Of a stretch of 59,701 nt of DNA, positions 12,324 through 13,466 are shown piece after piece. The stretch spans positions 60,872-120,572 of the forward strand of contig MGDT01000007.1 of the NCBI GenBank assembly GCA_001791045.1. Reading direction: 5' to 3'. Made by a program: the position numbers and the translations under genes. The notes under the pieces are model-generated. The model was not told the origin of the DNA and made no database searches. It was given only the letters and a program-made list of their open reading frames with translations. This DNA is from Candidatus Uhrbacteria bacterium RIFCSPHIGHO2_01_FULL_63_20. Lineage in GTDB: Bacteria; Patescibacteriota; Patescibacteriia; UBA9934; GWF2-40-263. How positions within the stretch are numbered: the stretch's first letter is position 1; every line of letters begins with the position of its first letter.

Positions 12324-13466
12324 GTGTTCAAGGTGAAAAACAAAGTCGGGAAGGCACGGCGAGGGCGCCTCACGCTCGCACATGGCATCGTCGAGACGCC
12401 GGCGTTCATGCCGATCGCCACGCGCGGGGCCGTGAAGAGCATCACGCTGCCCGAGGTGAAGGCGCTCGGGGCGCAGATCATCCTCAACAACACCTATCAC
12501 CTGTTGCTCCGGCCCGGGCTTGAAGCGATGAAGAAGCTGGGCGGAAGCCACAAGCTCATGAATTGGGACAAGCCGATCCTGACCGACTCCGGCGGGTTCC
12601 AGGTATTTTCACTGTCGAAACTGAACCGCATCGGCGAGGACGGGGTGGAGTTCCAATCCCACATCGACGGGGCGAAAATCACCATCACCCCGGAGTCCTC
12701 CATGGAAATGCAGCGCGCCATCGGCTCCGACATCGTGATGCAGTTTGACGACGTGGCGGACGGGCAGTCCACTCGCGAACGATTCGAGGACGCGATGGAG
12801 CGCTCGCTGCGATGGGCCAGGCGGTGCCGGGTGGCGTTCGATACCGCGCATACCAACTCCCAACTCCCAACTCCCAACTCCCAAAATCTCTTCGGTATCG
12901 TCCAGGGCGGGATCCACGAGGACCTGCGCGAGCGCTCCGCCAAGGGCCTCATGGACATCGGGTTCGACGGGTACGCCATCGGCGGGCTGTCCGTCGGCGA
13001 ACCGCGCGAGGATATGTATCGCATCGTGGAAAAGACCTGCGCCGTGCTGCCGGAAGACAAACCGCGCTACTTCATGGGTGGCGGAATGCCCGAGGAGATC
13101 GTCCGGAACGTCTTCGCGGGCGTGGACATGTTCGATTGCGTGCTTCCCACCCGGAACGCCCGCCACGGGACGCTGTTTACGTGGAACAAGGATCCCAAGG
13201 AATTCGGCAGGGAGTTGGTATCTGGGAGTTGGGAGTTGGGGTCGTCGGATTTTTATCAAAAGCTGAACATCACTTCCGAGCGGTTCGCGTTCGATCAGAC
13301 GCCCATCGATCCGCATTGCGATTGCTCCACGTGCAAGACCGTGAGCCGCGCGTACTTGCGCCACCTGTTCGCGGTCGGGGAACCGGTCGCCCAGCACCTC
13401 GCCACCATCCACAACCTGCGCTTCTACCTGCGCCTTATGGAGGAGCTGCGTTCCGTGCTAGAATAG
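12324..13466 (+). CDS. tgt: Queuine tRNA-ribosyltransferase (Tgt) carrying two repeat-derived loop insertions
   Basis: [51 protein letters not shown], and the zinc site CDCSTC...H. GTG start. TAG stop. Confidence 0.95.
12851..12888 (+). repeat. Family A element, forward: four perfect CAACTCC heptads inside tgt
   Basis: taccaactcccaactcccaactcccaactcccaaaatc, translated [14 protein letters not shown] 28-nt block, gcataccaactcccaactcccaactccc, is identical to the ligA copy. Confidence 0.9.
13211..13240 (-). repeat. Family A element, reverse orientation, inside tgt
   Basis: ggagttggtatctgggagttgggagttggg, translated [10 protein letters not shown]. Its reverse complement matches the grpE-dnaK spacer copy over 22 nt. 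Confidence 0.9.

Follow-up and report, generated by a model that had tools for sequence, protein, structure and literature searches.

In-frame heptanucleotide arrays in housekeeping genes of a Candidatus Uhrbacteria genome

The tgt gene of Candidatus Uhrbacteria bacterium RIFCSPHIGHO2_01_FULL_63_20, a member of the Patescibacteria or candidate phyla radiation (CPR) with about 65% GC, carries two short arrays of a tandemly repeated heptanucleotide, CCAACTC, in opposite orientations. Both lie in a stretch of 59,701 nucleotides (nt) of contig MGDT01000007.1, referred to here as the window, and we describe them together with related arrays in other genes of the same genome. The tgt open reading frame (ORF) encodes a full-length queuine tRNA-ribosyltransferase with intact catalytic and zinc-binding motifs (Table 1). 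Its first array (site 1) is translated in frame as a 12-residue peptide between the RWA helix and the LFGIVQGG strand. The second (site 2) is the reverse complement of the site 1 type with one variant unit, and is translated in frame as a 10-residue peptide after the residues GR. An earlier interpretation of the window (the sequence-only reading) had described just such an inverted, in-frame pair, and Tandem Repeats Finder (TRF), the sequence and the reverse complement at 13210–13240 bear it out.

The two arrays belong to a larger family. A unit-wise scan of the window detected six heptad arrays of 3–4.6 units, whereas 50 first-order Markov shuffles gave 0.04 on average, and CCAACTC-type arrays are its top-ranking direct-repeat family. 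With at most one mismatch allowed, CAACTCCCAACTCC has seven matches where 0.01 are expected, well above what composition predicts. The four further copies named in the sequence-only reading are real by scan and translation: one fills the leader of dnaK, and the others are in mnmA, ligA and dnaG. Units are mixed within arrays (CCAACTC, CCAAATA, CCAGATA and CCAACTA) and exact blocks recur between loci, with 28 identical bases, GCATACCAACTCCCAACTCCCAACTCCC, common to the tgt site 1 and ligA arrays, and a 16-mer, CCAACTCCCAAATACC, common to those in mnmA and dnaG. The claim of a true dispersed repeat therefore stands. In a further 15 kb of the scaffold a seventh array is found, 7 kb outside the window (L207 16840–16867, minus strand; L numbers denote the loci compared), in sense inside a MutY-like HhH-GPD gene, giving seven arrays in about 75 kb, or roughly one per 11 kb. 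Genes contain six of them, five in sense and one in antisense, all in frame; the hosts are the housekeeping genes tgt (twice, inverted), mnmA, ligA, dnaG and the mutY-like gene.

The exact Tgt protein is also encoded on a 229-kb ENA scaffold (ERZ28563803, ANAN16-1 scaffold_88), in two further ENA assemblies (k141 contigs) and in Logan contigs of the run SRR2090153. The arrays are identical across the ENA scaffold, the two MEGAHIT-style k141 assemblies and the Logan contigs; as these may share site or reads, the comparison excludes an assembler artefact, a concern raised at the outset, and says little about population variation. No variation in unit number was seen across three assemblies, possibly of one population.

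Table 1. The tgt gene, the CCAACTC-type arrays of the window and one further period-7 array. TRF hits have period 7 and 3.3–4.6 copies.
Feature	Positions	Strand	Array composition	Unit-wise scan	TRF start	Support, peptide or context
tgt ORF, 380 aa	12324–13466	+				Pfam TGT, E=5.5e-148; PDB Tgt, E=1e-113
tgt site 1 array	12850–12884	+ (sense)	ATA-(CCAACTC)x4.6	12853–12880 (+)	12853	100% match at 12853–12884 (TRF)
tgt site 2 array	13210–13240	- (antisense to tgt)	CCAACTC CCAACTC CCAGATA CCAACTC	13212–13239 (-)	13210	Scan, sequence
grpE–dnaK spacer array	9218–9258	+	CCAACTC CCAGATA CCAACTA CCAAATA CCAAttt	9221–9248 (+)	9221	Sequence, scan
mnmA array	47973–48005	+	ATA CCAACTC CCAAATA CCAAATA CCAGCTC	47977–48004 (+)	47974	Peptide TYQLPNTKYQ
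ligA array	50806–50835	+	ATA (CCAACTC)x3 CC	50810–50830 (+)	50810	Peptide HTNSQLPTP
dnaG array	59485–59518	+	TTA CCAACCC CCAACTC CCAAATA CCACCTC CCAA	59487–59514 (+)	59487	Peptide LTNPQLPNTTSQ
Degenerate period-7 array	28884–28919	+	GTAGGGG/GTAGTGC/GTAGGGA			Between hibernation-factor gene and secA

All the genic copies sit in loops. At tgt site 1 the protein is 8 residues longer than a solved Tgt (10fb) and 11 residues (33 nt) longer than the Uhrbacteria baseline of 12 residues, which is the length in 17 of the 33 relatives' Tgt loci measured. Site 2 lies in a hairpin that CPR Tgt already has in enlarged form, and there the protein gains 7 residues (21 nt) over L203 and L205, the closest relatives. 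These values uphold the placement of both tgt copies at variable loops, which had been made by alignment to E. coli Tgt. An AlphaFold2 model of the protein (mean predicted local distance difference test score (pLDDT) 90.1) dips in confidence at both inserts: site 1 is modelled as the end of helix 151–178 and the coil before barrel strand 188–193 (pLDDT 72–82 over the block), and site 2 as helix 291–300 and a coil (pLDDT 83–89). The mnmA array is in the loop between TGHY and KDQ, which has one residue more than in E. coli MnmA and, at 20 residues, exceeds the 15-residue baseline of 71 of 118 Uhrbacteria. The ligA array lies 8 residues upstream of the KxDG adenylation motif, with a gain of 3 residues over E. 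coli LigA, and the dnaG array, between GFxGR and PKY, adds 12 residues relative to Aquifex DnaG in a loop of 19 residues (7–10 in the Uhrbacteria DnaG loops recovered). In the mutY-like gene the loop aligns to the GGKVP segment of G. stearothermophilus MutY and is 3 residues longer. The arrays measure 26–32 nt, but at four sites (ligA, mnmA, mutY and tgt site 2) the gene is longer by a net 9–21 nt only, far less than the array itself, so that the array took the place of native loop sequence instead of just splitting it. The description of the copies as inserted oversimplifies in missing this replacement.

The sequence-only reading linked the persistence of the heptad in coding DNA to its lack of stop codons in all six frames. 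CCAACTC, CCAAATA and CCAGATA are indeed free of stop triplets in every frame; CCAACTA is not, reading TAG in reverse, and in the window it is present in the intergenic copy only. Other CPR DNA gives this property weight. Eighty other CPR loci, 1.22 Mb in all, contain 21 period-7 arrays, or roughly one every 58 kb; the 59.7 kb of the window yield three when the same threshold is applied, of which two belong to the CCAACTC family and the third, (AGGCCGC)x3.4 in grpE, is unrelated. The units in the other CPR loci are diverse, several having an AACT/AGTT core and several of those listed containing stop triplets. Of the 19 arrays tested 15 are intergenic and four genic, which argues that a stop-free unit is what permits residence inside genes; at least three lie directly before an ORF (L266, L280 and L310). 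One of the CPR arrays, (AGTCCAC)x4 at L262 1161–1200, is in frame in ligA just before the BRCT domain. A second claim, that the forward genic copies share one reading phase, holds for CCAACTCCCAAATACC in mnmA and dnaG, a one-in-three chance, and is otherwise trivial, because a heptad array of at least three units passes through all three phases.

The arrays themselves are plain in structure. They are 25–35 nt long, and their sense strand is nearly free of G and so cannot self-pair. Inspection of the flanks of all copies revealed no terminal inverted repeats, no repetitive extragenic palindromic (REP) hairpin and no target-site duplication, and no fixed array length was found among the copies. 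G-quadruplex (G4) motifs are predicted at 12859–12882 (-), 13210–13241 (+), 50816–50847 (-) and 59491–59527 (-), and are absent from the dnaK-leader and mnmA arrays. In the window, Rfam at its gathering threshold reports only two tRNAs. A diversity-generating retroelement, a CRISPR array, an intein and a slippery site were considered and dropped, as the anatomy fits none of them. The 5′ flanks of tgt site 1 (12844–12858) and of the dnaG array (59478–59492) are nearly identical (CCGCGCATACCAAC and CCGCGCTTACCAAC), which may reflect a target preference or coincidence. CCGCG precedes both arrays, yet it is ancestral at tgt (CCCGCG in L121), and a by-eye comparison of the empty sites gave no consistent target motif.

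Comparison with close relatives shows that several arrays are absent there. In L205, whose Tgt is 79% identical, site 1 has the 12-residue baseline, site 2 is uninserted and the grpE–dnaK spacer measures 12 nt. The genome represented by L203 and L213 (GCA_004297215.1; Tgt 81% and LigA 83% identical) has no heptad array at tgt, dnaK, ligA, mnmA or dnaG, and the dnaK leaders of relatives are simply A-rich. The tgt arrays are likewise missing from all of the 34 other Patescibacteria Tgt loci examined. Both tgt arrays and the dnaK-leader array are thus lineage-specific gains relative to the closest relatives, and the comparison of orthologues proposed in the sequence-only reading does reveal presence–absence polymorphism at tgt.

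The same loops hold other repeats in related genomes. In L203/L213 a palindromic element of 45 nt, GACCCCACCCATGCCCTCCCCTTACCAAGGGGAGGGGTAGCTCGC, occupies tgt site 1 and the mnmA loop, the very places of the heptads in the window, and the dnaG loop has another, unrelated insert. L215 has the same palindrome at mnmA, and a similar peptide is encoded by the incomplete mnmA ORF with which L214 begins. In Uhrbacteria more broadly, tgt site 1 contains several palindromes (L129, L136, L138–140, L141/148), a tandem duplication of 16–17 nt (L130) and a different heptad, (CGCACGT)x3, in frame (L153, 3531–3568). This recurrence of unrelated small repeats marks the loops as recurrent landing or survival sites. 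The 46-nt palindrome, GAGACCTCACCCATGCCCTCTCCTGAATCAGGAGAGGGATAGCTCG, and its variants are located at 57781–57826 (-) in the window, L203 10520–10566, L213 8020–8064 and L215 1220–1264. The window copy contributes in-frame codons to the tail of a 115-aa ORF (SYPSPDSGEGMGEV), and in sister genomes the palindrome is read as DPTHALPLPRGGVAR in Tgt site 1 and the MnmA loop; it behaves like a Rickettsia palindromic element (RPE) and has a GTAG tag as in some REP families. A nested palindrome, GTCATTGCGAG...CGAAGCAATC...GATTGCTTCG...CTCGCAATGAC, is present in tgt of four Uhrbacteria (L136, L138, L139 and L140, at about 3520–3640 in each) and is read as ..SLRG..EAIS..KIASS..PRND at site 1. Motifs of the SLRG/EAIS/KIASS/PRND type are common in metagenomic hypothetical proteins. 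Many TPA metagenome bins among the records compared are titled 'uncultured Gammaproteobacteria bacterium' (L122, L124, L126, L129, L133, L136 and others); their Tgt or DnaG groups with Uhrbacteria/Patescibacteria, and the titles are probably a taxonomic mislabel.

Direct evidence on how the arrays change comes from ligA. Arrays are present at the same position in L214 and L215 (LigA 81% and 80% identical), with the same length and the same derived flanks, and absent in L213 and P0124. The L214 array is built of CCAACTG ((CCAACTG)x3) and that of L215 is degenerate. Only offsets 3, 10, 17 and 24 distinguish the window array from that of L214, one position in each unit, and the change is to G every time; the flanks are 79–84% identical. 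By our own calculation, the probability that four differences in 28 positions all fall in one phase is 7/20475, about 3e-4. The 5.1-kb contig of L214 has three arrays, all of the CCAACTG flavour, one of which starts CATACC and ends 2 nt before the gatC ATG; its array density is extreme, and at 5094–5126 a telomere-like (ATTAGGG)x4 runs into an ATG after gatC. In L230, an Uhrbacterium of 55% GC with a 64% identical MnmA, the mnmA gene carries CCAACTA CCAAATG CCAACTA CCAAATA at the codon position, in the frame and with the length of the array in the window, and a tRNA methyltransferase gene contains a CCGACTA/CCGACTC array in antisense. Unit flavour is thus specific to each genome: CCAACTC/CCAAATA in the window, CCAACTG in L214 and CCAACTA/CCAAATR in L230. 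The pattern indicates concerted evolution of the ligA arrays towards a genome-specific unit. Slippage alone cannot produce such a change, since length is unchanged inside essential genes and the steps in between would shift the frame; re-templating, or conversion from another array, can overwrite an array without changing its length.

Taken together, these observations make it probable that the arrays are a genome-wide dispersed heptanucleotide repeat, selfish or neutral, that is seeded and homogenized by copying, filtered by selection and frozen once inside genes. New sites would receive arrays, and existing arrays would later be rewritten, through copy-and-paste or something like gene conversion, with the genome's other arrays serving as template; copying of this kind is proposed to account for the recurrence of one unit across loci, for its concerted change and for loop sequence being replaced and not purely inserted into. 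Selection would then retain in essential genes only stop-free arrays that lengthen the gene by a multiple of 3 nt and fall in permissive surface loops. A genic array would thereafter be frozen, as slippage by one or two units would shift the frame, and this fits the uniform size of 3–4.6 units and the absence of copy-number variation. The encoded peptide, of the QLPTPNS type in sense and the GVGSWEL type in antisense, would be a passenger.

Several observations weigh against this interpretation. The census covers about 75 kb of one genome. The called genes of that region (scaffold 134.6–209.5 kb, about 75 kb) contain no transposase, reverse-transcriptase or RAYT (REP-associated tyrosine transposase) Pfam domain, and neither an enzyme nor a template for copy-and-paste was found there. 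Array density is about equal in genic (6 per ~67 kb) and intergenic DNA (1 per ~7.5 kb), which is odd if most insertions into genes are lethal. CATACC opens three of the seven arrays and CTTACC the one in dnaG, hinting at a defined element end where pure slippage predicts none. In a ligA tree with the array masked, the window groups with L213, which has no array, and L214 with L215; this conflict would require recombination, a second gain at the same site, or a loss by which the DRERFD baseline came back. Finally, the mnmA array is shared with the distant L230 and missing in closer relatives, a distribution that could mean site targeting rather than mere tolerance.

The unit is not confined to CPR. 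In the collection searched, a 22-mer of (CCAACTC)x3 has at least 120 loci against about 0.07 expected by chance, a count made for CCAACTC alone. Among the matches listed are Nostoc, Calothrix, Rivularia, Chamaesiphon, Trichodesmium, Vicinamibacterales, Pirellulales, Bacteroidota, Verrucomicrobiota, Chloroflexota, Gemmatimonadaceae, a Streptomyces and others, with patchy occurrence in Cyanobacteria, Acidobacteriota and Planctomycetota; the repeat is abundant in Nostoc, Calothrix and Rivularia. Outside CPR the arrays listed are usually mixed with CTAACTC, CCTACTC, CTCACTC, CCAGCTC and CCAACTT and often stand directly upstream of an ATG, and inverted pairs occur in Acidobacteriota. In-frame CCAACTC arrays are found in Pfam-confirmed genes for IleS (L037), CarA (L063), AlaS (L089, 26% GC) and GH57 (L094), and the translations suggest putative hosts in a Lon-like protease (L091), a non-ribosomal-peptide-synthetase-like protein (L079) and a GH57-like protein (L036). 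The mixed CTC/ATA pattern CCAACTCCCAAATACCAMMT has six matches against about four expected, none of them in CPR. As for a possible phage vector, only six IMG/VR contigs contain (CCAACTC)x3.

The sequence-only reading did not recognize a described element. We instead assign the arrays to the known bacterial heptanucleotide tandem repeats. Tandem heptamers known as short tandemly repeated repetitive (STRR) sequences were reportedly described in heterocystous cyanobacteria by Mazel and colleagues in 1990 (as cited in PMC4692102). Their canonical units are CCCCAGT, TTGGTCA and CAACAGT, and their arrays are long and intergenic. The likeness to the present arrays is in dispersed tandem heptamers with strain-specific units; the differences are the units (CCAACTC/CCAAATA), the CPR host and the location of six of seven arrays in genes. 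RPEs, said to have been reported by Ogata and colleagues in 2000, are palindromes of about 100–150 bp with conserved sequence that lie in frame in housekeeping genes. The comparison with them made in the sequence-only reading is a fair analogy for selfish DNA translated inside genes: the heptad arrays are likewise in frame in conserved ORFs, at tolerant surface positions and polymorphic among relatives, but they are non-palindromic and 25–35 nt long, and it is the 46-nt palindrome in the same loops of sister genomes that is truly RPE-like. Phase-variable loci are switched by frameshifting changes in copy number and are typically surface or virulence genes. We rejected a contingency locus of this kind because the hosts are essential housekeeping genes and the frames are intact in all assemblies. 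Miniature inverted-repeat transposable elements and REPINs differ in having the terminal repeats, REP hairpins or target-site duplications that are lacking at every copy here.

In many bacteria no long simple repeat is more abundant than the heptamer, for which slippage of the polymerase has been put forward as the source; long simple sequence repeats (LSSRs) with units that are not a multiple of three are found mostly between genes and vary in length (Mrazek, Guo and Shah 2007, as cited in PMC4679880 and PMC4692102). The present arrays resemble LSSRs in their 7-nt unit, head-to-tail order, three or more copies, many loci per genome and sporadic phylogeny. They differ in that six of seven lie in essential ORFs, all with 3–4.6 units and without visible copy-number variation, and the ligA arrays of the window, L214 and L215 are equal in length. 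The G4-forming heptamers GGGAATC of Xanthomonas and GGGGAYT of Nostoc are mainly intergenic (Rehm et al. 2015, PMC4692102). The G-rich strand here, (GGGAGTT)n, fits the same G3N4 motif, and inverted pairs are a further likeness, but four G-tracts are present only in pure CCAACTC arrays and not in CCAAATA-rich ones. The closest parallel is TAACTGA, a repeat common to Beggiatoaceae, Cyanobacteria and Bacteroidetes that lies mostly just upstream of starts without a Shine–Dalgarno (SD) sequence, with few copies at the periphery of ORFs and a mechanism of transfer that is not known (MacGregor 2015, PMC4679880). In both cases one heptamer with an AACT core is found in distant phyla, with no known vector, in short arrays (2–6 copies for TAACTGA), some of them at tolerant positions in ORFs. 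Many TAACTGA arrays abut start codons without an SD sequence; of the seven arrays here only that of dnaK does so, and leader arrays are also seen at gatC in L214 and ybaB in L203. TAACTGA has stops in all forward frames and is excluded from ORF interiors, whereas CCAACTC is stop-free and found mid-gene. The arrays are therefore of a known kind (LSSR, STRR, TAACTGA), and what is new is a stop-free, gene-dwelling flavour in a CPR host. A non-exhaustive literature search gave no match for the CCAACTC unit as a repeat, for its peptides or for repeat insertions in CPR genes.

The main alternative to dispersal by copying and selection, which we consider unlikely, is a discrete, ultra-small mobile element with a CATACC 5′ end and a reiterated 3′ part, targeted to its sites by a trans-acting enzyme such as a RAYT-like Y1 transposase or a reverse transcriptase with a heptad template. 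Presence–absence polymorphism, genome-specific flavours and concerted change are what such an element would produce, and the CATACC starts, repeated in the gatC leader of L214, would be its end. The mnmA and ligA sites struck in lineages that are not closest relatives, the palindrome in the same loops of sister genomes and a patchy cross-phylum spread like that of TAACTGA also agree with it. However, the copies lack terminal inverted repeats, target-site duplications and a fixed length, their net length change is often far below the length of the array, 75 kb contain no candidate enzyme, and the array strand has no self-complementarity for a hairpin-recognizing transposase to act on.

We think it rather unlikely that the family as a whole is a functional cis-element at the RNA level, in which a C/A-rich unstructured tract would aid or regulate translation initiation or bind an S1- or Csp-like protein and the genic copies would be by-products. 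The leader copies suit this idea: the scan copy in the dnaK spacer ends 11 nt before the dnaK ATG at 9260, the full array runs right up to that start codon, which has no SD sequence, and a loose SD sequence precedes only 14 of the 51 genes of the window. The gatC-leader array in L214 and a related array that abuts ybaB in L203 are similarly placed, as are a minimum of three arrays from further CPR loci and several from other phyla, and MacGregor proposed the same, translation-initiation type of role for TAACTGA (PMC4679880). Against it, just one of the seven arrays here is in a leader and six are deep in ORFs, one of them antisense, the dnaK leaders of relatives have an A-rich sequence and no array, and leader copies are not conserved in position across genomes. 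Only for the leader copies is a part in SD-independent initiation plausible.

A function for the inverted tgt pair itself, as an mRNA stem, a DNA cruciform, a G-quadruplex or a substrate for inversion, is very improbable. The sequence-only reading envisaged a long-range stem, and the arms, of 30 nt, are 90% complementary and 327 nt apart. The minimum free energy fold of the tgt mRNA does pair both arrays (17+9 bp), at -191.1 kcal/mol against a shuffle mean of -171.1 (z=-3.15), and predicted G4 motifs lie on the template strand of site 1 and in the mRNA at site 2. But neither array occurs in L203, in L205 or in any of the 34 other Patescibacteria Tgt loci examined, ribosomes would unwind a stem in a translated region, and the other arrays of the family are unpaired singletons. 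Because the stem is conserved in no relative and lies in a translated region, we treat the inverted pair and its predicted stem as incidental. Lastly, assemblies of short reads can get short tandem repeats wrong, but mis-assembly, a chimera or low complexity arising by chance can be dismissed given identical arrays in the ENA scaffold, two k141 assemblies and Logan contigs, orthologous arrays in other samples (L214, L215 and L230), intact ORFs and a shuffle expectation of 0.01–0.04.

No long simple repeats are more over-represented in bacteria than those of seven nucleotides, and how they arise and spread is unexplained. A stop-free unit records gains, losses and replacements within conserved genes, where they can be dated against orthologues, and the ligA arrays of the window and L214 give direct evidence of genome-specific homogenization of dispersed arrays. 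A few loops of Tgt, MnmA, LigA and DnaG are repeatedly filled by heptads or palindromes in related CPR genomes. Some of the differences in loop length among these CPR housekeeping proteins are accordingly due to repeat DNA and not to adaptive evolution, which matters for their annotation, phylogenetics and structure prediction. More speculatively, a sequence-specific process that writes arrays, by installation with a defined 5′ end and by homogenization of all arrays of a genome to one unit, with length preserved even within essential genes, might operate in Uhrbacteria and possibly in many phyla; we regard this as doubtful. If true, the arrays would be the smallest non-palindromic mobile or templated elements known, and the recurrence of STRR, TAACTGA and CCAACTC across phyla would be explained.

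Other short repeats and genes in the window are worth recording. The degenerate array before secA (Table 1) represents a GTAGTGC/GTAGGGG/GTAGGGA family (complement GCACTAC) with related arrays at L203 18671–18703, where it abuts the ybaB start in sense, and at L230 12581–12609 and 12637–12667, which form an inverted pair about 28 nt apart; it is possibly a sister family of the CCAACTC arrays. The (AGGCCGC)x3.4 array of grpE (9096–9119) is in frame, encodes EAAGRRPQ and constitutes a third stop-free heptad family in a gene; an AGGCCGC array in the sister grpE (L203 4316–4346) is near the N terminus, the window copy near the C terminus. Directly after secA, with no reverse transcriptase nearby, a gene at 31801–32346 encodes a four-helix bundle of the 23S_rRNA_IVP family (PF05635), a family that includes the accessory Avd proteins of diversity-generating retroelements. 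Many genes have a TAnAAT-like box ending 6–10 nt before the start codon (for example at 5917, 13475, 23551–24792 (-), 37467 and 50491), which suggests that leaderless mRNAs may be widespread in this Uhrbacterium.

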